From positions 1-51,156 of the forward strand of contig JBBSYO010000017.1 in assembly GCA_038045185.1 (NCBI GenBank): a DNA stretch of 51,156 nucleotides, written 5' to 3'. The position numbers were made by a program, and so were the translations under genes. The DNA is from Nanobdellota archaeon. GTDB taxonomy: Archaea; Nanobdellota; Nanobdellia; Pacearchaeales; GW2011-AR1. Positions 1,420-51,156 of this stretch are shown here, one piece after another. The notes below the pieces were generated by a model. That model did no database searches. It was given only the letters and a program-made list of their open reading frames with translations, and had not been told where the DNA came from. How positions within the stretch are numbered: position 1 is the stretch's first letter; each line of letters starts with the position of its first letter.

Positions 1420-1611
1420 ATTTTAGGAAAGTGCTTGCGGTATATAAATCTCACGGCAGCTGTTGATACCCCTTCTTGTCTTGGGTGCTTCTGTCGGGCT
1501 TGCGTTTACGGTTTGACAATCGATTTTCCTGCTTTTTCCTTATACTGAGAAAATTATGCGCGCGTACCCTGTCTACTTTAATTCGTCAGAAAGAGCGCCT
1601 AATTTTCACGG

Positions 1612-1684
1612 TGCAAGCAACTTTCTTAAAAAGGAAAGTTGCTGCACAGAGAATTGAAACATTTAATCAATTCTCTTGTGCTCA
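1612..1684. repeat. palindromic module pair, inverted copy of part of the 38337-38559 composite
   Basis: 1639-1684 is the reverse complement of 38381-38426 with one mismatch. It is preceded by the hairpin AGCAACTTTC..GAAAGTTGCT. Confidence 0.9.
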
Positions 1685-1862
1685 ATAACCACAACAACAC
1701 GCAACTTACTTTAGGACTTACCTTAAAATAAAGTAGCAAATTTTAGGGAGTTTTAAAGGAAAAATATGTCTAAAATTTAACAAGTTATTGTTAGGTTCGC
1801 CCTTAGTGAGTGGTTCTTGACACAAGACAAACAATTTTAAACTATTGGGCTACTGGTAGAGA

Positions 1863-2125
1863 ATGGGTGAAGAAAAAGAGGAGACGCATATTGCTATTTT
1901 TAATGGAAAGGTAATAAGAAGAAAATTGATCGGGGATAAATAGTATTTCTCGGTTGTTGATGTTGTAGGTGTTTTAAGTGAAAGTGAAGATCCAAATGAT
2001 TATTGGTACAGATTAAAAAAGAGAGAATCAGAAGCTAGCAAAACCCAGCTATCGACATTTTGTCGACAACTGAAGTTAAAATCTAGTGATGGAAAGGAGT
2101 ATGAAACGGACTGTGCCGATAAGAT
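1863..2125 (+). pseudogene. Bro-N domain (antirepressor-like) pseudogene
   Basis: Manual translation: MGEEKEETHIAIFNGKVIRRKLIGDK*YFSVVDVVGVLSESEDPNDYWYRLKKRE..LSTFCRQLKLKSSDGKEYETDCAD. TAG at 1941-1943 sits where Trp is expected, and the gene is truncated afterwards. Confidence 0.8.
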
Positions 2126-2279
2126 TCGTGCATATTTTAATCTAGTTGGCAGTTCCAATTTAAGACATATAGTCAGATTCCATGAACGTTTTTCAGAAAG
2201 CAATACCTTGTATCAAAAAGAAGTCGTTAATTACTACCAAAAACCTTTTTATAGGGATGTTGAGTTGCCTTTTAAGATT

Positions 2280-2350
2280 GGCCTTGTAGTATAATGGTAG
2301 AACGATCCCTTGACGTGGGATAGACCGCGGTCCGATTCCGCGCAGGGCCA
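2280..2350 (+). tRNA. tRNA-Val(GAC)
   Basis: GGCCTTG/CAGGGCC acceptor, anticodon arm ATCCC-TTGACGT-GGGAT, atypical T-loop TCCGATT. Confidence 0.9.
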
Positions 2351-2418
2351 TTTATATAATCGGGGATATTTTTTACATTGCATAAATTTGCGAAGCTTAG
2401 AATACTTTATAAATAAAT

Positions 2419-3117
2419 TTATTTTGTACAATAACAGACTAACTTATCTTTCTCACAAGTATTAGAAGAATAGTCCATACTTCTTTTGCCACAAATCTCT
2501 CTACAACTTTTTTGCTTCATATCAGATATTCCTTGAGATTCTCCTAATGCCTCTAAAGATGCACAACTCTTGTATATATCTTTCCAGAATCCATATTCAT
2601 CCATCTCAGATGGGACAAGACGAACTGTGCTAGAAGGTTGATAAATCTTTGAAGAGCCTATTTTGCTTGAATTAAAAAAAGAAAAGCTAAAATTTCCAAA
2701 TTTAACAGGATTGAAAGAATTAAATTTTACATTATCGTATGTAGAAGTTATATTCTCAATTACTTTATCTTGGCTGAAGAAAGCAAAGAGTAATAAAAGT
2801 ACTATACCAATTCCAATTAACAATTTTGTGCCATTATTAAATCCTCTAAACCAATATTTAAGATTTTTGCAAAGATGCCATCCCTTTCTTATTACAAAAA
2901 ATAATGTAGCCAAAAGAATAAGAGAACCAAATTTGATAAAGATAAGGGTGATTTGATTTAGCTTTTCAACATTATTATAAAGTATTAGAAGCACTAATAT
3001 GAAACCTATAAATTTAAGTAAGTCGTGAATAAATACCGTCTTATTTAGTTTGCTATGCGGGTGTTCCTTTTCTAAAAACCATTCTTTAAACCTGTCATAA
3101 AGATTAGGTTCTTTCAT
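2419..3117 (-). CDS. membrane protein with Cys-rich C-terminus
   Basis: Three TM segments and a C-terminal CREICG..C..VCYC. Lies directly downstream of 3119-4387. Confidence 0.75.
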   Translation of the reverse strand: MKEPNLYDRFKEWFLEKEHPHSKLNKTVFIHDLLKFIGFILVLLILYNNVEKLNQITLIFIKFGSLILLATLFFVIRKGWHLCKNLKYWFRGFNNGTKLLIGIGIVLLLLFAFFSQDKVIENITSTYDNVKFNSFNPVKFGNFSFSFFNSSKIGSSKIYQPSSTVRLVPSEMDEYGFWKDIYKSCASLEALGESQGISDMKQKSCREICGKRSMDYSSNTCEKDKLVCYCTK

Positions 3118-15444: not shown

Positions 15445-16162
15445 TCAGCCATAATTATTCGTCCTTTTTCTTTTTTTAGTCCATATCTTGAAAATGTCAG
15501 GTCTTACTTCGCCCCTTATATCTGGAACATACGTATGTCCTGCTTCAACTTCGTTTTCTAATTCTCTTCTTTCTTGATTTACTTGCGTTACCAACCTTGA
15601 AAATCCGTCCCCCCCGCTATTCCTCGCATCTGTTTGGGCAGGATGTTTATTTTTTAAGAGCGTTTCTCTGACCATCTCATCAAAATGCGTTTTATTCGGC
15701 AATTTGCCTTCTGTTTTGTTATATTCGCTTAATGCCTGAAACATTTTATGGAAATCTCCTGTGAATTCATAACCTGTCTGCGTTAATGCCAAACTTATAC
15801 ACTCTAAAGTCTGAATATCACGTCGAGTTGCTGCATAAGGCGCGGTCGATCTTACTATTGATTTGATGTCAGAAATGCTGGTTCAAACCGCGCCCTTTAG
15901 GGCGCCGCATTTCTGAGCATCCAAAAGTCCACACAAACCACACCCCTTAGGGTGTGGTAAAACTCATGGACTTTTTGATATTTGCTATTTGATAATGGGC
16001 AGGCAGTCTGTTAAATTGTTTTTTTTGATATGCTCTATCGATTATACCTGTGAGGATTTCCAAAGCGCTATCTTGATTAGAATATACTTTAGAAACTCTT
16101 CTAGCAAATTCGTGCAGCCTTGATATTTCTCCTGGTTTATTGAACCATTTTTCTTTATGCAT
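15445..16162 (-). pseudogene. hypothetical gene (about 201 aa) split by a 112-bp palindromic insertion
   Basis: Deleting 15868-15979 fuses ORFs 15947-16174 and 15445-15792 in frame (..QIANIKSIVRSTAPYAATRRDIQTLECISLALTQ..). Confidence 0.75.
15868..15979. mobile_element. nested-hairpin element (family B)
   Basis: TCAGAAATGC..GCATTTCTGA followed by CAAAAGTCC..GGACTTTTTG, each with an inner CCYTTAGG hairpin. Shares an identical 23-mer with 38445 and 51088. Confidence 0.85.
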
Positions 16163-26350: not shown

Positions 26351-26396
26351 GCACTTTTATAGTACACATAGGATAAAAAGGCTTCTGTTTGTCTTA

Positions 26397-26489
26397 CAGA
26401 GAATTTGGATAATTGGATTGCTCTTCGTCCCAAATTCTCTGTCTGGATAATTCGAATGAACTGCAACATAATCAACCGAATTCTCCATA
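26397..26489. mobile_element. TA-flanked double-hairpin element (family A)
   Basis: CAGAGAATTT-N25-AAATTCTCTG followed by TGGATAATTCG..CGAATTCTCCA. Homologous to 46325-46416. Confidence 0.88.
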
Positions 26490-31048: not shown

Positions 31049-31140
31049 TCGATAATTCTGTTGATTAGCGTATGAAAAACAGAATTATCTTATTAGAGAA
31101 TTCGGGCTAAATTATAGATTAATCATCCGAATTATCTATA
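31049..31140. repeat. double-hairpin element, divergent family A
   Basis: GATAATTCTGTT..AACAGAATTATC followed by AGAGAATTCGG..CCGAATTATCT. Confidence 0.7.
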
Positions 31141-34821: not shown

Positions 34822-34912
34822 ATGTTTAACTTGTTTAACAAGTTTATAAATTTTACTATTTCATTTGCAGCGCCTGCGGAAGTTTTAAATCAGGTTCTTG
34901 CAAGATAAAGAC

Positions 34913-37837
34913 ATGGCTAAGAAAAAATCCTCGAAAACTCTGAATTTTAAAGCCATGGAGCGAAAATGGCAGAGAGCTTGGGATGAGGCTGAAGCGTATA
35001 AGAGTTTCGATAGCTCTGAGAAAAAGAAATGCTATGTGTGCGAGATGTTTCCTTATCCGAGCGCGAGTTTTTTGCATGTTGGGCATATGCGCAATTTCAC
35101 GATTGGCGATTTGATTGCGCGATATAAACGGATGAAGGGTTTTAATGTGATGTATCCGATGGGGTTCGATGCCTTCGGTCTGCCTGCGGAGAATGCCGCA
35201 ATTAAGCAGGGCATTCGTCCGAAGAAGTATACTGAAAATGCAATTAAGACGATAAAGAAGTATATGCGTGAACTGGCTTTGAGTTATGACTGGAGTCGGG
35301 AGCTTGCGACGTGTTCGCCGGAATATTACAGGTGGAATCAATGGTTATTTTTGCGCATGCTTGAGAAGGGAATTGCTTATCGCAAGAAGGCGCCTGTTAA
35401 CTGGTGCCCTTCGTGCAAGACAGTACTGGCTAACGAAGAAGTTGTTGCTGGAAAGTGCTGGCGATGCGACAGCGATGTGACGATTGAGCTTCTGGAGCAA
35501 TGGTTCTTGAAAATTACCAATTATGCGGATGAATTGCTGGAAGGACTTGAGGGATTGAACTGGCCCGAACGAGTTAAAGAACTGCAACGAAACTGGATTG
35601 GACGACGCGAGGGGACGAAGGTTGTATTCCCTATTAAGGGCAGCGAGAAGGCTCTTGAAGTTTTCACCACGCGTGCAGATACACTTTATGGAGTGACTTT
35701 TGTGGCATGTGCGGTACAGCATGAGATTGTTGAAGGTCTTGTTAGGGGAACGAAATATGAAAAGGCTTACAAACAGTTTGTTAAAGATATGTCGGCTTCT
35801 GAAAAATTGGAAGCTGATAAAGAGAAGCACGGATTTTTTATCGGGAAGCATGCAATACATCCGTTGACGAATGAAGAGATTCCGATTTATGCGGGCAATT
35901 TTGTGGTTGCAGGTTATGGCACGGGTGCGGTGATGGGCGTGCCTGCGCATGACCAAAGGGATTTTGAGTTTGCGAAGAAACATAAATTACCGATTAAACA
36001 GGTTGTAGCCCCGCTTTTTGTCACAACTGAGGGAAAGGACGCGATTAGAAAAGATAAGCCCACTATCGCCAGAGATACTGTATTTGCCATTGTTAAACAT
36101 TGGGAGGATGATAAATATTTCTGCCTTGACTGGAAGAAATTTGGATGGAAAAGCTTAGTTATCGGAGGAATTGATGATGGCGAATCTCCTGAAGATGCCG
36201 CAATTAGAGAGGTAAAAGAAGAAACTGGTTACCAAGATATTAAGTCTGTTGCCTCCATAGGTTTTGAGAACCACGGCAACTATTATGCAGAACATAAGGG
36301 AGTTAATAGATATGCAAGGTTCAAGACTTTCTTAGTGACTTTAAAATCTGGAAAGCGTATTGAACCAGATAAAGAGCATGTGCAAAATCATTATGGTTTA
36401 TGGATAGAAGGCAAGGATGTAGAGAGTTTTCTTAATTTGCCAAATAATAAATATGTTTGGGATATTTATGCCAACGGCGAGAGGGCATTTGTTGATGGTG
36501 GCGTTTTAATTAATTCAGACGTTTTCAACGGGCTTGATTCTGCGACTGCGCGGGAACGCATTAGTGAAATGCTTGCAAAAAAGGGCGTCGGTGGGAAGAC
36601 CGTTGAATATAAACTGCGGGACTGGCTGATTTCGCGACAGCGTTATTGGGGAACGCCGATTCCCATTGTATATTGCAAGGATTGCGGGGTTGTGCCAGTT
36701 CCTGAAAAAGATTTGCCTGTTGTGCTGCCGGATAAGGTTAAGTTTACAGGGAAGGGCAACCCCTTGCTGACGAATGAAGGGTTTGTCAATACTAGTTGTC
36801 CGTGCTGTGGAGGAAAGGCACGGCGTGAGACTGATACGATGGCAACGTTCTTTGATTCGAGTTGGTATTATCTGCGTTATTGCTCTCCTAACAGCCACGA
36901 TATTTTTGACAGAAAAGCAGTTGAGTATTGGATGCCGGTTGATTATTACATTGGGGGGATTGAACATGCGGTGCTGCATTTGCTGTATGCGCGTTTTTTC
37001 ACGAAGTTTTTGCGTGACATTGGATGGGTGACATTTGATGAGCCGTTTAAACGCCTTTTTAGCCAAGGGATGGTTCTGGCAAAAAGCGGCGAGAGAATGA
37101 GCAAGAGCAAGGGAAATGCTGTTACGACGAAGGAAGCGTGCAGTCGTTATGGCGTGGATGCGACACGATTCTTCATGCTGTTTGTTGCAAGTCCTGATAA
37201 AGATATGGAATGGGACGAACACGGAATTGAAGGCGTGCATCGGTTTGTGACGCGTTTTAAGGAATTATTTAATCGTGTAGGGGGGGCGGCGAATGCGCTG
37301 ATGGAACACAAACTTCACTCTACGTTAAGAACTGTTGAGCAGAGTTATGAACAGTTTGAGTTTAATAAAGGGCTTGTGGCGTTTATGGAATTTGTGGGAT
37401 ATTTGGCTGAGCAAAAGCAGGTGCCGAGGTTTGTGCTTGAGAATTGCTTGTTGATTATCGCGCCGGTGATGCCGCATTTGGCAGAGGAATTGTGGCATAG
37501 GCTTGGGAGGGCGAGCTTGATTGTGCAGGAGCGTTGGCCGCATGTGGATGAAAGCAAGATTGATGATGCGCTTGATGAGTCTGAACGTGCGCGCGAGAAG
37601 ACGTTTAATGATATTCAGACGGTTCTACGTCTTGTGAGAGAAAAGACTGGCAAAGAACCGAAGAAATTGTATATTTACACGATTCCGCCCGAGGTTGGAC
37701 AGTATTCTGCAGAAGATTTATCGAAGCGTTTAAGTATTGAAGTTAAGGTATTTGCTGTGAATGATTCGCATAAATACGACCCGGAGGGCAAGGCAGGCAA
37801 GGCGCGACTTGGGAAGCCTGCGTTGTATGTTGCATGA
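34913..37837 (+). CDS. leuS: leucine--tRNA ligase, bacterial-type core with inserted Nudix domain
   Basis: [44 protein letters not shown] and RMSKS. Internal Nudix box [22 protein letters not shown]. Confidence 0.96.
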
Positions 37838-38313
37838 GTAATGTTTCAAGGGAGCAGGTTCTTCGGGAGTTGCATGATGGTTTTGCCGCGCTCAAAAAGG
37901 AATTAGGATTCAAGGCTGGTTTTGAAGAACTTGACAGGGTGTTCTTCTTGGAAGATGCGGTCTTGAATACCGGGTTTGTCAGCAGAACGGCGCTGTCGAG
38001 ACAGATATGCGCACGGATTGCGGAAACTTACATGGGTTGGAATAATTATTTGCATGGTCTGATTATTTCGAATCCGCATTATATGATTCAGGTGAATGAG
38101 GGCAAAATGCTGAGTGATGAGGACAAAAAGATGATGGGCAAAATGATTAGCGAGGGTATGCGATTCGTTAGCGGAAACATGCTGAATGGACTGACGAAGG
38201 ACAAAAAGGCAGAGGCAGCATTTATCGACGACGCATTGGCTTTATGGGGTGAGAGTTACCGTCCGCAGCTGGCAATATTCTTGTCTAAGATTTATGCGGG
38301 CTGGAAGAAATAG
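37834..38313 (+). CDS. hypothetical helical protein
   Basis: ATGA-coupled to leuS, clean ORF. Confidence 0.8.
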
Positions 38314-38336
38314 TTGTCATTGTTCCGTTGGTCAGT

Positions 38337-38559
38337 ATGTCACGAACGTTAAAACCTTGTCCTTTAGGACAAGGCGTTCGTGAGCACAAGAGAATTGATT
38401 AAACGTTTCAATTCTCTGTGCAGCAAATCGTGTTCGATTTGCTTGCATCCAAAAGTCCACACAAACCTCGGCTCATCAAGAATCTCAATTCTTGACTGCC
38501 ATCAAGAACCATAGGTTCTTGAGGTTTAAGCCGAGGTGAACTCAAGGACTTTTTGATAT
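38337..38559. mobile_element. composite nested-hairpin array (family B plus the module shared with 1612-1684)
   Basis: At least eight stems, including TCACGAACG/CGTTCGTGA, CCTTGTCC/GGACAAGG, AGCAAATCG/CGATTTGCT, CAAAAGTCC/GGACTTTTTG, CCTCGGC/GCCGAGG and TCAAGAA/TTCTTGA twice. Confidence 0.88.
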
Positions 38560-38670
38560 AAATTATGCGTTTGCTATTTTTAAGTGAATCGCTATATAAG
38601 TATTGAGATAGGTGAATGATTGTGTTTGAGATTCGTATGAGTATTTAATGAAAAATATCTCCTGTATAAT

Positions 38671-38835
38671 ATGGAACAAGTGTTACAGCTGATGCCTGCG
38701 CGGTGCAGTTGGTGCGGGATCTTGTTCGACCTCAGCTATGACCTGGGTGAGACGAACAGCGAGCGCTTTAACGAAGCGCTTTCTGCCCTGACCGCACGGC
38801 GGAAACGAATGTTATGTTGGAAATGCCGAGAGTAA
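38671..38835 (+). CDS. 54 aa Zn-finger microprotein
   Basis: MEQVLQLMPARCSWCGILFDLSYDL..MLCWKCRE with two CxxC pairs. TATA-like TATTTAA about 28 bp upstream and a T-rich tract after. Confidence 0.7.
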   Translation: MEQVLQLMPARCSWCGILFDLSYDLGETNSERFNEALSALTARRKRMLCWKCRE

Positions 38836-38915: not shown

Positions 38916-39692
38916 ATGAATGAGTTTTTTGCCCAGATTATTTTGGCCATAGTTCAGGGTCTCGCGGAGTGGTTTCCGATATCCAGCTCAAGCCATCTCG
39001 TGCTTGTTTCCAAGCTTCTGGAATATAATAACACCTTGCAGTTTGACATTGCTCTGCATTTTGGCACATTGATGGCTGTGTTTGCTTATTTCAGCAGAGA
39101 TATAACTGAAATTCTGCGCGAGCTTTTGCGATTGAAGTTTAATACTGAAAACGGAAGGCTTGGCTTGTTTTTGATTGTCGCCTCTGTTCCTGCTGTCTTG
39201 CTTGGATTTTTGCTTAGAAATGTCGCAGAGCAGAGTGTTGGTGACCTGCGCCTTATATCTCTTGGATTGGGCGTTACAGGCATATTTTTGCTGATTGCCT
39301 CTCTTAATTATAAATTCAGCAACAAGGGCAAATTTAGTTATAAGACTGCTTTTATCATAGGAATTGTGCAGGCGTTTTCCATTTTTAGGGGGATTTCCAG
39401 GACTGGCTCAACTGTCGGTTCTGGTCTTCTTCTTGGATTGAATGAAAAGACAGCTGTTAAGTTCTCATTTTTGCTTTCCATGCCGATAGTTTTCGGAGCC
39501 AGCGTTCTTTCTTTAGGGAACAGCCCTATCCCCAAGAGTTATTTTTTGGCGACGTTGGTTTCTTTTGCTGTTGGGCTTTGCACGATACATTTATCTTACA
39601 AATATGTTCTTAGAAACAGGAAGAATTTAAGATGGTTCGGGATTTATGTGCTTGTACTTGCCTTGGTTTTGACGCTGTGGAACGCTTTATAA
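38916..39692 (+). CDS. uppP: undecaprenyl-diphosphate phosphatase (BacA family)
   Basis: QGLAEWFPISSSSHL, LHFGTL and GISRTGST motifs. Confidence 0.92.
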   Translation: MNEFFAQIILAIVQGLAEWFPISSSSHLVLVSKLLEYNNTLQFDIALHFGTLMAVFAYFSRDITEILRELLRLKFNTENGRLGLFLIVASVPAVLLGFLLRNVAEQSVGDLRLISLGLGVTGIFLLIASLNYKFSNKGKFSYKTAFIIGIVQAFSIFRGISRTGSTVGSGLLLGLNEKTAVKFSFLLSMPIVFGASVLSLGNSPIPKSYFLATLVSFAVGLCTIHLSYKYVLRNRKNLRWFGIYVLVLALVLTLWNAL

Positions 39693-39762: not shown

Positions 39763-41919
39763 TTAAAGTCTGTTGCTATAGGATAGGGCTTCTACAACTG
39801 CTTTAATTCTTCTCACGCCTGCAGCGACTGATTCTTCCTTGATGATTCTGAATGTGCCGATTTCTTTGGTGTTTTTTACATGCGGACCAGTGCAGATTTC
39901 CTTGCTGAACCACCCTTTTTTTTCTGCAGGGTCTTTTACTGTGTAAGTAGAGACTTTGTCAGGATATTTGTGGCCGAATTCTGCCTGTGCTCCCGCGGAT
40001 ATTGCGTTTTTGAATGCGACTTCTTCGCGGACGACTTCGAGGCGCGCATTTATTTTTCTGTTGACCAGCGATTCTATTTGCGCTATTTCTTTATCTGTTA
40101 ATTTTCTGGAAAAATTAAAGTCGAATCTCAATCTTTCTGGAGTGATATTAGAACCTTTTTGCTTCACTTCACTTCCTAAAACTCTTCTCAATGCTTCGTT
40201 TAAAAGATGAGTTGCGGTGTGGAGCCTTGTTGTTTTCTCCGAGTTGTCTGCGAGGCCTGAGCTGAATGAGCCTGCCGAGGTTGTTTTTGAAAGCTCCTGA
40301 TGTTTTTTGTATGCTTCTTCAAAACCGATGACGTCTACTTTTATTTTTTTCGCTTGGGCAAGCTCAACGGTCATCTCGAGAGGAAAACCGTGGCTTTGGA
40401 ATAGGAGAAATGCTTCTGTGCCTGAGATTTGCTTGTTTGAACTTACGCGTTCGAATTCCTTCAAGCCTGTAGAAAGTGTTTTCTCGAACTTGTTTTCTTC
40501 TGCGGAGAGAATGTTTTCTATGAACTTTCTTTTTTCTTTCAGTTCTGAATAATCCGCATACGTGTCGATGACTGTTTCGGCTAGTGTTTTTGTTAAAGGC
40601 TTGTCTACATTAATGTTTAATTTTCTGCTATAAACTATGGCGCGGCGTATGAGCCTGCGAAGCACATATCCGCGTTCGACATTGCTCGGCACTACGCCAT
40701 CTGCAATCATCATTATGGCTGCGCGGAGATGGTCTGCCACGATGCGCATTTCTTTTTCATGGTTCTGATATTCCTTGTTTGACATTTGTTCGATTACTTC
40801 AATAAGTGGTGCGAATGAGGATGTTTCGTAGTTGTCTTTCAGGTTGTTGATGGCGGCAAGCGTGCGCTCAACGCCCATGCCTGTGTCAACATTGCGCTGT
40901 TTTGAGGGAATAAACTTGTATAAATTATTCTCTATCCACTTTTTGATTTGCTTATTATCTTCGTATAATTCTGAAGCAATTCCCAATTTTCCTGCTGATT
41001 CTATGTTCTCTTTTTTATGATCAAAATAAATTACTTCCCGAGGCTGAAGGTTATATTTCTTCAGAAGCTGCTTGAAATAATCTGGATTTGCTTTATCTGG
41101 AATTTTTAACAAACTGAATATCTTAAAATTATATCTTCCAAGTTTTGATTTTATTTCATTTGGATTTGCATTAGTCACAACAATTATTTCCCTCTCTGTG
41201 GATTCAAGTGCTTTAGCCAACCCCTCATTTAATTTTCCTTCTTTGTCAATTAATGTGTTGATAGCGTCCACTAATACTGCTTTAATTTGCACTTTTTCAT
41301 ATTCCATGAAAACATTGTTCCAGATTTCCACCCAACGGCTGTCTTTTGGGTCGAACTTTTTTGGAGGGGTGTCTGATGAGCTCCAATAAAACATCTCTGT
41401 GTCTGGACCGCACGGGCCTGTCCGACCTGCAGGACCCCACCAATTATTATTTTTTGGCAGGAAGGCGATACGTTCTTTTGGAATGCCGAGTGCTAACCAT
41501 GCTTTTTCTGATTCTGTGTCTTTAGGCGCGTCATTATCGCCTGCGAAACAACTGACAGCGAGCTTTTCTATTGGCAGTTTGAGTATTTTTGTAAGGAACT
41601 CGAGGGAATACGAGATTGCTTCTTTTTTCCAGTAATCTCCAAGGGACCAGTTGCCCAGCATCTCGAAGAAAGTATGATGCGCGGCATCGCCCACTTCTTC
41701 TATGTCGCCTGTGCGGACGCATTTTTGCACATTTGCGAGGCGCTTTCCTGAAGGGTGTTTTTCGCCGAGGAGAAAGGGGACAAGGGGATGCATGCCTGCT
41801 GTGGTAAATAATACTGTTGGGTCATTTGCAGGAATGAGCGAAGCCGAAGGAATTATTTTGTGCTGCTTTGAGCTGAAGAATGCAAGATATTTTTCTATCA
41901 ACTGCTGCCTGGTTATCAT
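39763..41919 (-). CDS. alaS: alanine--tRNA ligase (short form, no C-Ala) with inserted HAD-like domain
   Basis: FTTAGM, HHTFFEMLGNWS, GPCGP, EIWNNVFM and DTGMGVER motifs, plus editing motif HTATH..CTGPH. Insert LVDAINTL..VTN..K..YFDH. Confidence 0.95.
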   Translation of the reverse strand: MITRQQLIEKYLAFFSSKQHKIIPSASLIPANDPTVLFTTAGMHPLVPFLLGEKHPSGKRLANVQKCVRTGDIEEVGDAAHHTFFEMLGNWSLGDYWKKEAISYSLEFLTKILKLPIEKLAVSCFAGDNDAPKDTESEKAWLALGIPKERIAFLPKNNNWWGPAGRTGPCGPDTEMFYWSSSDTPPKKFDPKDSRWVEIWNNVFMEYEKVQIKAVLVDAINTLIDKEGKLNEGLAKALESTEREIIVVTNANPNEIKSKLGRYNFKIFSLLKIPDKANPDYFKQLLKKYNLQPREVIYFDHKKENIESAGKLGIASELYEDNKQIKKWIENNLYKFIPSKQRNVDTGMGVERTLAAINNLKDNYETSSFAPLIEVIEQMSNKEYQNHEKEMRIVADHLRAAIMMIADGVVPSNVERGYVLRRLIRRAIVYSRKLNINVDKPLTKTLAETVIDTYADYSELKEKRKFIENILSAEENKFEKTLSTGLKEFERVSSNKQISGTEAFLLFQSHGFPLEMTVELAQAKKIKVDVIGFEEAYKKHQELSKTTSAGSFSSGLADNSEKTTRLHTATHLLNEALRRVLGSEVKQKGSNITPERLRFDFNFSRKLTDKEIAQIESLVNRKINARLEVVREEVAFKNAISAGAQAEFGHKYPDKVSTYTVKDPAEKKGWFSKEICTGPHVKNTKEIGTFRIIKEESVAAGVRRIKAVVEALSYSNRL

Positions 41920-42117: not shown

Positions 42118-43539
42118 ATGGATTATAAGGAATTATTGGAGGAAGTAAAAAACCCTGAAAAAGAAGTTTGCGAGCTTAAAACTAGTTTTAACGAATGGGA
42201 AGCTATTGCTAAGACAATAGCTGCCTTCTCAACTAAGAGAGGCGGCAAAATATTTATCGGTATAGATAAAAGAGGGGTTCCTTGTGGTACGGTTTGCTCA
42301 AATGAAATTAGTGGAAAAATACAAACCTTAGCGAACAACGAGATAAAACCCGCTGCAAACGTTTCATTAGAGAAGGTAAATCACGATTCTGAAAAAGGTC
42401 AAGTAATTGCATGTATTAATGTTAAAAAAGGAAATGGAGTTTATTCATATAAAGGCGTACACTATGAACGAAGAGGGGATACAAATCACCCACTAACTGC
42501 TGATGAAATATTTGAACTACAGAAAGCTATCAAGAAACTTTATTTTGATGAAATGCCATCATTTTCTGAAGAGAGACCTGCACTTATTTCTGACATAGAT
42601 GAGAATAAGACAGTTGCCTACGTTTCTGAAGTTAAAGGTATCTCCCAGGTTGATTTAAAAAGATTTTTAGCAAACCATGGGTTCTTAGTGAATGGTGGTC
42701 AGCAGGTAAAAAATGCGGCTGTAATGATTTTCGGAAAGAGTCCTCAGAAGTTTATTCCACAATTAAGGCTCAGCTTGGCAATTTTTAGTGATAAGATTGT
42801 TACAAGGGACTTTATAAAAAAAGAATTTGTCGGAGACATTAATGAGATTTATCAGAGTGCATTTATAGAAATAGCTAGAAGCATGAGAACCTATTCTTTT
42901 ATAGAAGGTGCAAAAAGACTCGATGTTAAAGAATATCCGATAGAAGTTATAAGGGAATGCCTAATAAATGCATTAGTACATAGAGATTATTTTGAAAAGA
43001 ATACAGAGACATTTGTCAAGATATTTTCTGACCGAATAGAAATTGTAAATCCTGCAACATTTCCATTTGAGAATACTACCTTCGACGAGATTAAAAAAAC
43101 AAAACTTTCGAAGAGAAGAAATCCACTAGTAGCAGAATATTTTGAGTCCCTTGGTCTTATGGAAAAAGAAGGGCGTGGGCTTTCTAGAATTGAAGATGGT
43201 CTGAGGGAACATGGGCTTCCGATTCCTAAGTTTGAAGTAAGTCAGAATATATTCATGGTTACTTTATATAATGCCGAAGATAAACAAAAGATAAAAAATT
43301 CCCCTCATAAAAAAGTTATTGATTACGGTATCTTAAATGCGCGACAGAGAGTCCTTGTAAATCGTTTATATAAAAATCCTAAGGACTCGGTTGGGCGTGC
43401 TGACTATATTCGTTTATTAACAGAGGCAAAAATACCTATTACAAATCCAACCGCTACACGAGACTTAGATGAGCTAACCAAAAGCAATGTACTTACAAGA
43501 ATTGGAGAGAAGAGAGGTACTAAGTATCGCTTAACCTAA
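42118..43539 (+). CDS. Schlafen/AlbA_2 + HATPase_c_4 + wHTH protein (RecG-C-like regulator or defence protein)
   Basis: ELK..AF..GG.IFIGI (AlbA_2), RE.LINALVHRDY..DRIEI.NP..RNP..E..GRG, and TATRDL..L. AT-rich. Confidence 0.88.
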   Translation: MDYKELLEEVKNPEKEVCELKTSFNEWEAIAKTIAAFSTKRGGKIFIGIDKRGVPCGTVCSNEISGKIQTLANNEIKPAANVSLEKVNHDSEKGQVIACINVKKGNGVYSYKGVHYERRGDTNHPLTADEIFELQKAIKKLYFDEMPSFSEERPALISDIDENKTVAYVSEVKGISQVDLKRFLANHGFLVNGGQQVKNAAVMIFGKSPQKFIPQLRLSLAIFSDKIVTRDFIKKEFVGDINEIYQSAFIEIARSMRTYSFIEGAKRLDVKEYPIEVIRECLINALVHRDYFEKNTETFVKIFSDRIEIVNPATFPFENTTFDEIKKTKLSKRRNPLVAEYFESLGLMEKEGRGLSRIEDGLREHGLPIPKFEVSQNIFMVTLYNAEDKQKIKNSPHKKVIDYGILNARQRVLVNRLYKNPKDSVGRADYIRLLTEAKIPITNPTATRDLDELTKSNVLTRIGEKRGTKYRLT

Positions 43540-43572
43540 ATGATGCTTAAATGATGCTTAAATGATGCTTAA
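43537..43572 (+). repeat. 11-bp tandem repeat x3
   Basis: (TAAATGATGCT)3TAA starting at the AlbA gene stop codon. Confidence 0.95.
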
Positions 43573-46312: not shown

Positions 46313-46324
46313 AGCGACGAAATA

Positions 46325-46416
46325 CAGAGAATTTGGGACAAAGAGCAATCCAATTATCAAATTCTCTGTCTGGACAATTCGAATGAACCGCAAAATCATC
46401 AACCGAATTCTCCATA
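46325..46416. mobile_element. TA-flanked double-hairpin element (family A) inserted in the 5' end of the spoIIM-like gene
   Basis: Homologous to 26397-26489 with the first loop inverted. Its removal restores MKRRNKRYRLMHDSW from the ATG at 46309. Confidence 0.88.
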
Positions 46417-46979
46417 AGCGATATCGGCTCATGCATGATTCGTGGGCATACTTAAAGACCTCGTGGGGATTTGTTCTGGCAAGTTTTTTAATTTTTGCCG
46501 TGAGCGCAATTGCAGGTTTTATGCTTGTTGAGCAGCTTTCTTTTTTTGATAGTTTGCTTGCTGATATTTTTGCCAAAGTGGAAAATCTTTCGGGGCTGCC
46601 GCTTATTACATTTATATTGTATAATAACTTGCTGAGTGCGTTTTTTGGACTCTTTCTCGGAGTTTTTCTCGGTATTCCTTCTTTTTTTAACCTCCTGCTT
46701 AACGGCTCGCTTGTTGGGTATGTGCTGGCTCGTGCTGCAGAAACGCATGGGCTGGGGCTTGCTTGGCGCTTGGTGCCCCATGGCATTTTTGAGCTGCCTG
46801 CTGTCTTCATTGCCACTGGACTGGGGATGCGTCTGGGAATGAGTTTCTTTTCGCGCAACTGGAAGAAGACACTCAAAGAGCGCCTCATTGCCTCTCTCGC
46901 TGTTTTTTTAGCTATTGTAGTTCCGCTTTTGATTGTAGCTGCTTTTATTGAAGGGATTCTTATCACGCTTTCTGGTTAA
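46383..46979 (+). CDS. SpoIIM/DUF95 family membrane protein
   Basis: I.YNN..NG.LVG..PHGIFELPA..AAFIEG motifs. The present start lies inside the inserted element; the ancestral start is 46309. Confidence 0.85.
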   Translation: MNRKIINRILHKRYRLMHDSWAYLKTSWGFVLASFLIFAVSAIAGFMLVEQLSFFDSLLADIFAKVENLSGLPLITFILYNNLLSAFFGLFLGVFLGIPSFFNLLLNGSLVGYVLARAAETHGLGLAWRLVPHGIFELPAVFIATGLGMRLGMSFFSRNWKKTLKERLIASLAVFLAIVVPLLIVAAFIEGILITLSG

Positions 46980-46994
46980 ATCGGATGTCGTCTA

Positions 46995-47083
46995 TAGAGA
47001 AGTTTGCAATAATCGATAAAAGCAATAAAATGCTGCAAACTTCTCTAAGAAGGACTTTGAAAAGAAGGGTTATTCAAAGTCCT
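46995..47083. repeat. two tandem hairpins
   Basis: TAGAGAAGTTTGCA/TGCAAACTTCTCTA (14 bp perfect) and AGGACTTTGAA/TTCAAAGTCCT. Confidence 0.75.
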
Positions 47084-47120
47084 CTATAATGTTTAAAAAG
47101 TCTGTCGGGCATGAAGTGGC

Positions 47121-50075: not shown

Positions 50076-50130
50076 TGAAAGACATAAATATAAAGAATTT
50101 AATTGATTATGTTACAAGTTATTCAAATCG

Positions 50131-50310
50131 TCAAGAACTCTCGGTTCTTGAGCGTGCTCAAGATGTCGCAAACATCTTGACATCTTTAAACAGAGAATTA
50201 AGAACAAACTACAACCCAATTATCTTAATTCTCTGTAATTGAGCAAGATTGTATGTCTTTCCCTTGATAGTCAAGGCGCAAACTGGTAAAATCTCAGCGT
50301 CCTTGACTAT
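50131..50310. repeat. cluster of hairpin modules (TCAAGA type x2, family A monomer, extra hairpin)
   Basis: TCAAGAAC/GTTCTTGA, TCAAGATGT/ACATCTTGA, CAGAGAATTAAGA/TCTTAATTCTCTG (50191-50235) and ATAGTCAAGG/CCTTGACTAT. Confidence 0.8.
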
Positions 50311-50370: not shown

Positions 50371-51063
50371 ATGGGCGATAAACTTGTGGATGTAATTCGT
50401 GACGGCGAGATTGTTACAGTGAGCGAAGCGCAGGCACGCGCCGAGGATTTGTTTATTCTGCGCGAGAGGCACGCTCCTCCTGCAGCGCCAGCGCCCTTGA
50501 CTGGACATCCTGCTTTGCGAACAACAATTCCGGTTCGTGCGACTTCTGCGCAGAAAGCAGTACCCAGATGGCATAGTTATCAGCCTGAGTATACAAAGAA
50601 TAATGTGGCTAAGGAGTTGATTGATAATTTCCATTGGGAGATTGGGAAGGCGCGAAGAGAGCGAAATATGACTCGTTTGCAAATGGCGAATGCGCTCAAT
50701 ACGAATGAAGGCATTATCAAGATGCTTGAAAATGGTGAATTGCCGAGCGATGATTTTGTACTTATCAATAAAGTGCAATCTTTTTTGCATATTAATCTAC
50801 GACGCGATGGCAAGAGTTTTGACGCTTCTGCGCGGGCGCAGCTTTCTTCTTCTTTACCTGCGCCAAGTGCTAGTTCTGCTACTCCTCCTGTGGCAAAGCC
50901 GCACTATGACGCGAATATTTCCCTAGCTGAATTGCAGCGCATGAAGGCGCGTGACGCGCCTGTGCGTGAAAAACCAAGATGGGTAAAAGATAAACCATTT
51001 GAAGAAAGAAGGGGCTCTTTGTTTGGCGAGGATATTGAGATTATTGGATCAAAAAGTCCTTAA
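50371..51063 (+). CDS. aMBF1-like HTH protein
   Basis: ELIDNFHWEI.KARR...T..Q.A......IKMLENG.LP HTH. No Zn-ribbon Cys. The stop codon lies in the downstream element. Confidence 0.8.
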   Translation: MGDKLVDVIRDGEIVTVSEAQARAEDLFILRERHAPPAAPAPLTGHPALRTTIPVRATSAQKAVPRWHSYQPEYTKNNVAKELIDNFHWEIGKARRERNMTRLQMANALNTNEGIIKMLENGELPSDDFVLINKVQSFLHINLRRDGKSFDASARAQLSSSLPAPSASSATPPVAKPHYDANISLAELQRMKARDAPVREKPRWVKDKPFEERRGSLFGEDIEIIGSKSP

Positions 51064-51156
51064 GTCTTACCACACCCTAAAAGGTGTGGTTTGTGTGGAC
51101 TTTTGGATGCTCAAGGAACGACACCATCCTAATGGATGGTGTTTTCTGTCAAGTTC
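51048..51156. mobile_element. nested-hairpin element (family B), reverse orientation, runs off the window end
   Basis: 51088-51110 is the reverse complement of GCATCCAAAAGTCCACACAAACC. Inner hairpins CCACACC/GGTGTGG and ACACCATCC/GGATGGTGT. Confidence 0.88.

Follow-up and report, generated by a model that had tools for sequence, protein, structure and literature searches.

Nested hairpin modules in a Nanobdellota genome, probably non-autonomous relatives of IS200/IS605-type transposons

The composite of hairpins at positions 38337-38559 of a contig from a Nanobdellota archaeon is probably made of non-autonomous IS200/IS605-type elements, that is, of remnants of single-strand DNA transposons that have been reduced to their hairpin ends and resemble the palindrome-associated transposable elements (PATEs) of Haloquadratum walsbyi. 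The genomes of DPANN archaea are among the smallest and most compact of all cellular organisms. The stretch that was analysed, referred to as the window, is the whole contig C17 (51,156 nucleotides, nt) of a genome of 909 kb in 84 contigs, which has a GC content of 41% and an estimated completeness of 83%, encodes TFIIB, which confirms an archaeon, and occurs in public sequencing runs that are groundwater metagenomes. An original prediction, made from the letters of the window alone, had described the composite as a combinatorial repeat system, in which modules target one another and structure rather than sequence is conserved, and this description proved largely right. Here, contigs of the host genome (G000) are designated C, related genomes G and individual loci L.

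The composite is built of four hairpin units in tandem (U1 to U4), and all stems named in the original prediction are present, including those of the two TCAAGAA..TTCTTGA modules that it had placed in the loop of the inner hairpin CCTCGGC/GCCGAGG. The units, and the copies in the window with which they are compared, are the following:

38337-38386, plus strand: U1, a two-level hairpin that starts with ATGTCA and ends with TGAGCA, one of 40 copies of 50-57 nt in the genome
38384-38421, plus strand: U2, a middle hairpin with a 10-bp stem (38389-38398/38408-38417) and a one-base bulge at its foot
38421-38446, plus strand: U3, a middle hairpin with a 9-bp stem (38422-38430/38435-38443), of which there are ten copies with the same stem
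38447-38558, plus strand: outer frame of U4, with a 12-nt stem (38447-38458/38546-38557) that contains a conserved C/T mismatch, ending in TTTTTGAT
38465-38537, plus strand: core hairpin of U4 (CCTCGGC/GCCGAGG, stem 38465-38473/38529-38537), with AAACC on its 5' side and a loop split by the double hairpin
38474-38525, minus strand: double-hairpin module, two hairpins that each start with TCAAGAA and end with TTCTTGA, one of 26 loci
15866-15979, plus strand: two-unit copy (U1 and U4) with neither middle hairpins nor a nested double hairpin
51048-51156, minus strand: copy of U4 and U1 that reaches the end of the window
1639-1684, minus strand: solitary inverted copy of U2
50129-50183, plus strand: a pair of free, oppositely oriented simple hairpins (GTCA..TGAGC type) between convergent genes

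In U1, an outer stem of 9 bp (38340-38348/38375-38383) encloses an inner stem (38355-38363/38366-38374), and the core hairpin so formed is preceded by AAACC on its 5' side and has the loop TTTA. U2, which has further copies on C69, C65, C78 and C28, and U3 are both simple hairpins whose foot has a one-base bulge; U3 ends in a GCAT junction, after which U4 begins. U4 is a three-level nest, consisting of an outer stem, an inner hairpin and, within the loop of the latter, two small hairpins (stems 38476-38483/38488-38495 and 38502-38510/38514-38522), which, when read on the minus strand, start with CC immediately 3' of the TTAAA in the host loop. The same outer frame had been said to occur elsewhere around a plain inner hairpin, and such a copy is found at 15920-15979; likewise, the extra modules that had been reported as inverted elsewhere are borne out by the segment 38381-38426, which recurs at 1684-1639 (46 nt, 97.8% identical). 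The free modules that had been placed at 50131-50183 are indeed two TCA..TGA hairpins, but they are of the GTCA..TGAGC flavour rather than the CC..GG flavour of U4. Stop codons occur in all six frames of the composite, and at 223 nt, with units of 27-120 nt, it is too short for a transposase. Long terminal inverted repeats were not seen at its ends, as the GTCA(N).. start and the ..TTTTTGAT end share only a short TCA and an A-rich likeness.

Folded as single-stranded DNA, the composite reaches -66.4 kcal/mol, compared with -22.1 +/- 3.5 kcal/mol for 200 shuffled sequences, none of which folds as well (z -12.6), and the opposite strand folds comparably (z -13.1). The composite is not an artefact of assembly, since an independent metagenome contig (L083, 2917 nt) covers the whole region and is collinear with window positions 38150-38673, with a single base difference at 38310, upstream of the repeats. 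That dispersed repeats had been collapsed or chimerised, as the original prediction had considered, is suggested by contigs assembled from public runs with short k-mers, which end at the borders of units and none of which spans the composite; we regard it as extremely improbable given L083 and the single exact contigs, from runs of three studies, that enclose the nested part (38438-38547). L083 was also the sole contig retrieved in a scan of metagenomes for strain-level empty sites, is identical across the repeats and thus reveals no strain polymorphism.

The modules belong to a family that is dispersed over the genome. There are 806 perfect hairpins in the genome (stem of at least 7, loop of 3-9), compared with 424-472 in three dinucleotide shuffles, and 14-mers that occur at least three times form 297 regions with a total of 25 kb, or 2.8% of the genome, a figure that includes a CRISPR array and other repeat families (a word size of 14 was used; 11-mers flagged most of the genome). 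Units of the ATGTCA..TGAGCA form give 79 matches, which are made up of 25 simple hairpins (27-39 nt), 40 two-level hairpins (50-57 nt), four copies of 67-68 nt, five of 109-120 nt with hairpins inside, one of 179 nt and four that are probably due to chance. Four levels are reached in the 179-nt copy (C23:14854-15148), where two more hairpins split the first hairpin of a nested double hairpin. A search for U4 frames yielded 24 arm pairs: five are empty (27-30 nt), 13 hold a core hairpin (50-51 nt), three hold a core plus a double hairpin (101-111 nt), one is 70 nt long and two are chance pairs. Inner stems are shared by different outer frames: CCACACC is found in frames A (four copies), C (five), D (seven) and E (one), and CCGCGCC in frames A (one) and B (three). 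In addition, an identical double hairpin is shared by a frame C copy on C78 and a frame E copy on C7. The modules therefore recombine freely and the family is combinatorial, as had been claimed, and the counter-case that modules might never be found in other combinations does not hold.

The shape of the modules is kept while their sequence varies. Among 35 of the 40 two-level U1 copies, which were aligned after five with a different internal type had been left out (L037, L051, L054, L062 and L068), standard pairs fill 97.0% of 469 cells, compared with 34.5-43.6% when the pairing partners are slid along the alignment, and the observed pairing score was matched by none of 500 shuffles. Two-sided changes are seen in 12 of the 17 pairs, including all eight of the inner helix, which is independent of the search pattern, whereas the outer helix was partly selected by it. 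The 13 copies of frame A provide a second view: their outer 30 nt are nearly invariant, and between their inner stems there are compensated differences at as many as three positions and no intermediates, a pattern that fits either a swapping of hairpin modules as wholes or selection that acts on shape alone. The earlier claim that structure is conserved over sequence is thereby upheld.

Such strong covariation and very stable folds are also what would be expected of structured non-coding RNAs or of cis-acting RNA elements, such as stabilisers of 3' ends or terminators, with the optional hairpins as variable domains. Many copies indeed lie just 3' of genes, and G032, from another family of the order, retains the architecture of four units in diverged sequence. 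Nevertheless, we consider an RNA function quite unlikely. Both strands fold equally well, and copies are found in both orientations and in every type of spacer, namely tandem (21; 14 co-oriented with the genes and seven anti-oriented), convergent (eight) and divergent (11), with no significant bias in their orientation relative to neighbouring genes. Nor is there a top-strand preference for G-T wobbles, with four wobble cells against seven non-standard C/A cells at one pair (columns 25/42); a strand-specific version of the wobble test that allowed two mismatches was swamped by chance hairpins. Rfam 15 provides no match: the gathering threshold is passed in the window by tRNAs alone, and no match with E <= 1 falls within 38250-38650. 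Finally, copy number jumps among close relatives, and copies lie in frame inside two long open reading frames (ORFs). The latter two are stop-free and deep within their ORFs, at C44:1702-1854 (ORF C44:60-3623, 1188 codons) and C22:65045-65161 (ORF C22:64378-65700, 441 codons), and resemble the palindromic elements of Rickettsia. Two further readings were dropped by eye: that of the ATGTCA/TGAGCA ends as C/D boxes or K-turns, for which the spacing of the boxes is unsuitable, and that of the bulged hairpins as integron attC sites, as the hairpins abut without cassettes.

The reading of the modules as reduced transposon ends draws on a transposon that is resident in the same genome. The only Y1 (HUH) transposase gene, located at G000:C30:4371-4856, encodes a protein that scores 87.1 bits with the NCBIfam IS200 model (cut-off 55) and in whose sequence HVH and YIRNQ motifs are readable (named according to a table in PMC6006769). 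The ends of the transposon were derived by comparing the flanks of this gene with those of 10 homologues in related genomes. Over these 11 loci, the right end consists of GGAAACC, a hairpin with a TTTA loop and about 10 nt ending in GTCAT, and the left end of ..GAAATC, a TCCA..TGGA hairpin, also with a TTTA loop, and GT. The module cores have the same form as the right-end hairpin, with the AAACC flank and the TTTA loop, and in the relatives G149, G104 and G123 the U1 core is the left-end TCCA..TGGA-GT hairpin. Because the cores match the end hairpins of the transposon, U1 and U4 together would represent a left end joined to a right end, as in PATEs, with U2 and U3 as an optional middle. In seven of the 11 transposon loci, including the C30 copy, one or two extra small hairpins are present in the right-end hairpin, just 5' of TTTA and thus at the same position as the double hairpin in U4; the insert is short in one of the seven, and those of L011 and L014 are homologous and one compensated change apart.

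On either side of the Y1 gene lie the left and right ends of its own element, followed by a truncated gene for a DDE transposase, instead of hairpin modules. The GC content is 48% where the element lies (C30:4180-4955), compared with 37% for the contig, and the element looks like a recent arrival. Abutting it is a DDE_Tnp_1 ORF fragment (C54:129-578, in the region C54:1-640; C30 and C54 overlap by 55 nt), which covers only positions 33-200 of the family model and looks N-terminally truncated, so that it seems one mobile element inserted into or next to another. Searches of the genome for DDE_3 (IS630-type), rve and OrfB_IS605 domains found none.

These features bear on two other classes of short repeats. 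The modules could be kept by the host as sites for nucleoid proteins, topoisomerase or a domesticated Y1 protein, like repetitive extragenic palindromes (REPs) and bacterial interspersed mosaic elements (BIMEs). Such a role would agree with a Y1 gene that is single-copy, with double hairpins that are two inverted hairpins like the doublets known as REPINs, with clusters that are mosaic like BIMEs and with the conserved one-base bulges at the feet of the hairpins. It is nevertheless unlikely, as the Y1 protein scores as an IS200 transposase and reaches only 35.5 bits, against a cut-off of 80, with the REP_Tyr_transpos model for REP-associated tyrosine transposases (RAYTs), and as its gene has transposon ends of its own in place of flanking modules (no REPtron) and sits beside a truncated DDE gene in a GC-rich patch with the look of recent acquisition. 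Moreover, the hairpin foot is AAACC, with no GTAG or GTGG, and none of the four congeners searched has a Y1 homologue, yet one of them (G005) has three U1 copies and the congener G006 a two-unit copy, which is unlike the vertically inherited RAYT systems. The second class, classical MITEs (for miniature inverted-repeat transposable elements) with terminal inverted repeats that are mobilised by a DDE enzyme, is suggested by the TCA..TGA form of all small hairpins (102 of the 806 perfect hairpins start with TCA), by the DDE_Tnp_1 fragment on C54 and by a published census, which in the passages concerned reports a high density of MITEs in a Woesearchaeal genome (PMC11602168). We regard this origin as very unlikely: the arms pair over their full length, with compensated variation as in hairpins and not at the termini only, nested sites have no target-site duplication and the only DDE gene looks truncated, DDE_3 and rve being absent from the matches.

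The nested modules follow rules of position. A double hairpin has the layout CC-hairpin-TGG/CCA-hairpin-GG, consisting of two inverted hairpin units with a total length of 47-57 bp, and 26 loci were found by their CC-TCA start. Of these, 17 lie directly 3' of AAA or AAG, namely 11 in the loops of core hairpins, on the strand opposite to that of the host, and six in U4 frames, where they follow GCATCCAAA in the 5' arm; three more lie two bases after AAAA and six after neither. AAA or AAG stands before CC in 6% of the background and precedes 45 of 107 strand reads of short CC..GG hairpins. From uninterrupted hosts it is evident that the A runs are host sequence and that removal of the double hairpin gives back an intact arm or loop, and no target-site duplication was found at nested double-hairpin sites, where it was looked for. 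Nesting is therefore site-specific, in support of the claim that modules target one another. The outer ends of the elements are also conserved: the left flank of 49 copies reads T (41), T, G or A (27/14/8), A (44) and T, the last T being fixed by the pattern with which copies were selected, and further out nothing is conserved; the right end TTTTTGAT is invariant in 33 copies. Most of the 49 copies thus lie beside a short conserved oligonucleotide, T(T/G/A)AT, and one copy stands directly 3' of the TTGAT end of another.

From these arrangements we infer insertion as the process and propose the following model. U1 would be a left-end-type and U4 a right-end-type hairpin, each with an extra outer stem around it, and U2 and U3 would be optional. 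While the DNA is single-stranded, a Y1 (HUH) transposase may bind the core hairpins of one strand and cut short motifs at a fixed distance from them, after which the excised piece would be re-inserted 3' of a short target with no target duplication. A smaller second repeat, the double hairpin, would insert 3' of AAA(A/G). As the TTTA loop of every core hairpin is TAAA on the other strand, each such hairpin may offer a fresh single-stranded target, and targeting of loops would give rise to hairpin-in-hairpin nests with alternating orientation; such activity may be continuing.

The distribution among relatives is patchy. In BLAST searches, the modules were nearly specific to this genome, with weak or single matches in five of 40 relatives; among the five, the congener G006 has the two-unit copy and G032 the diverged four-unit composite. 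With a covariance model of U1, for which at most 38 candidates per genome received a score, the element is detected in 25 genomes of the order out of 151, this genome counted, at very uneven copy numbers: 37 in G149, 35 in G164, 23 in G032, 21 in G055, 19 in G113, 15 in G130 and three in the congener G005. In the congener G003, the orthologous spacer, which is 121 nt long compared with 310 nt here, does not contain the composite; conservation with G003 resumes five bases past the end of the composite, and the left flank is too diverged to set a boundary. Homologues of the Y1 protein are present in 48 of 201 genomes of the order, this genome counted, and include the high-copy genomes G149, G164 and G032.

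Several observations weigh against an IS200/IS605-type origin. No match to the Y1 family was found in three of the copy-rich genomes, G055 (96% complete), G113 (91%) and G130 (88%), nor in G103 and G132, implying either that the repeats can do without a resident gene of this kind or that the gene has been lost or not assembled. The genome does have one gene for an HUH endonuclease, the kind of mobiliser that the original prediction had proposed to look for, but across genomes the gene and the repeats coincide imperfectly. At its two ends the composite (GTCA.. and ..TTGAT) does not match the resident transposon (..GTCAT at the right; left flank TTAAT in four of six loci) and is therefore not a simple deletion derivative of it. 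An empty site at high identity was sought and not found, so that the insertion boundaries of the composite as a whole are unproven, and the strand bias relative to GC skew that is expected of IS200/IS605 elements is not significant (28 versus 18, p = 0.18). In this genome, an apparent covariation links a base of the left flank to the one that precedes the core hairpin on its 5' side (TGAT with TCAAACC, TTAT with TAAAACC), but the relationship fails in G032, G132 and G103 and is a linkage within subfamilies rather than proof of guide-target pairing. It is also possible that at least some of the discrete copy classes arose by deletion of palindromes from a fully loaded ancestor.

Since three high-copy genomes are without a Y1 transposase, another enzyme may be responsible. 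In this variant, which we consider possible but doubtful, the double hairpin would be a hyperparasite of hairpin DNA that targets the TAAA of IS200-type loops and the AAA runs of arms to form fractal nests, and both it and the PATE-like units would be moved by an enzyme other than Y1. If so, DPANN archaea would hold an unrecognised transposition or repair activity that targets hairpin loops, and insertions of the double hairpin might disable IS200-type elements, as has been proposed for the SMR-A repeats of Haloquadratum.

The composite lies between an ORF of 159 codons (37834-38313), which is downstream of leuS, and uppP/bacA (38916-39692). Between it and uppP, a block of about 45 nt (38564-38612) is near-identical in the congener G003, the coding flanks of which are only about 70% identical, and may be a promoter or a small conserved element. 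Both aminoacyl-tRNA synthetases nearby have an unusual inserted domain, namely a NUDIX domain in the middle of the leucyl-tRNA synthetase (34898-37837, plus strand; residues 416-494) and a match to HAD-like hydrolases in the alanyl-tRNA synthetase (39763-41919, minus strand; residues about 199-315). Further stretches of the window made of 14-mers that occur at least three times in the genome are 26394-26489, 31050-31140, 43537-43572, 46322-46418, 46991-47084 and 50152-50286. Elsewhere, contig G000:C79 (locus L002) carries a CRISPR array at 329-1100, with 11 repeats and a period of about 73 nt, which adjoins an open frame of 541 codons (about 1447-3100) with a Cas12f1-like/TnpB C-terminal domain (76.6 bits); together, these look like a compact type V system in a 0.9 Mb genome. 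A second, unrelated family of repeats, about 150 nt in length, has two long AT-rich hairpins with a GC-rich hairpin at the tip of each; copies lie at G000:C7:46323-46491, C13:956-1108, C20:27206-27357, C20:39545-39696, C10:10348-10467, C32:1600-1733 and C28:3244-3441.

Repeats of all kinds make up as much as about 3% of this compact genome, and hairpin-built mobile remnants are a large share of this, some of them within protein-coding genes. Knowledge of the module grammar guards against misreading such sequences as RNA genes, terminators or replication origins and accounts for many of the contig breaks in metagenome-assembled genomes of this kind. The modules are also a natural test bed for single-strand transposases, or a so far unknown enzyme, that read the shape of a hairpin over its sequence, and the link to a resident IS200-type gene makes such a test feasible at the bench.

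The original prediction knew of no description of such a system in archaea, but the PATEs of H. walsbyi precede it. In the passages of Dyall-Smith et al. (2011, PMC3119063) that deal with these repeats, PATEs have near-terminal palindromes like those of IS605-type transposons and occur in terminal-only forms of 52 bp, and the palindromes of both PATEs and transposons serve as insertion sites for SMR-A repeats of about 110 bp, which leave the target unduplicated. As far as those passages go, PATEs and the elements described here are both gene-less, lack long terminal inverted repeats and carry palindromes near their termini that resemble those of IS200/IS605-type transposons, the terminal-only PATEs of about 52 bp compare with U1 and U4-type units of 50-57 bp, and the absence of target duplications at PATEs has its counterpart in the restoration of hosts at nested double hairpins. 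In both systems, a second class of small repeats prefers the palindromes of elements and transposons, a comparison of behaviour and not of sequences, and in both the apparent mobility is hard to reconcile with the scarcity of transposases, of which, in Haloquadratum, few of the IS200 type are intact (PMC3119063). Unlike the PATEs described there, the elements reside in a host of DPANN size (0.9 Mb), have an extra outer stem around each palindrome and include in-frame copies inside genes, and unlike SMR-A, the nested repeat is smaller, consists of two inverted hairpins and builds nests of up to four levels.

Other known systems share parts of this picture. With REPs, BIMEs and REPINs, as portrayed in the passages of PMC6006769 on them, the modules have in common short hairpins with a conserved motif 5' of the foot, inverted doublets, mosaic intergenic clusters, some in-frame genic copies and the involvement of a Y1 HUH relative; they differ in the IS200-type enzyme, the AAACC foot in place of GTAG or GTGG, a gene that is not flanked by the repeats and a patchy occurrence among close relatives. 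IS200/IS605 transposition, according to the same passages, is characterised by a short target, no duplication and an asymmetric hairpin position (PMC6006769), and the elements resemble the IS608 and ISDra2 type in having subterminal hairpins on one strand with asymmetric distances to the ends, and insertion 3' of a target of 4-5 nt, with a left flank T(T/G)AT that is similar to the right end TTGAT; they are unlike it in having no internal transposase gene, termini that differ from those of the resident transposon and no significant strand bias. The passages on Woesearchaeal MITEs in PMC11602168 contain no description of these elements, and searches of the literature yielded none of the family in DPANN archaea. 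New here are a resident IS200-type gene with matching ends, an insertion site in the loop that is common to the transposon and U4, the rule that double hairpins follow AAA, with the counts behind it, nesting to four levels and the failure of the Y1 gene and the repeats to co-occur consistently. Judged by the published passages on PATEs and SMR-A, the system appears to be of the same kind as that already described in archaea, from which it differs by its host lineage, its outer stems, its smaller nested repeat and the depth of its nesting.

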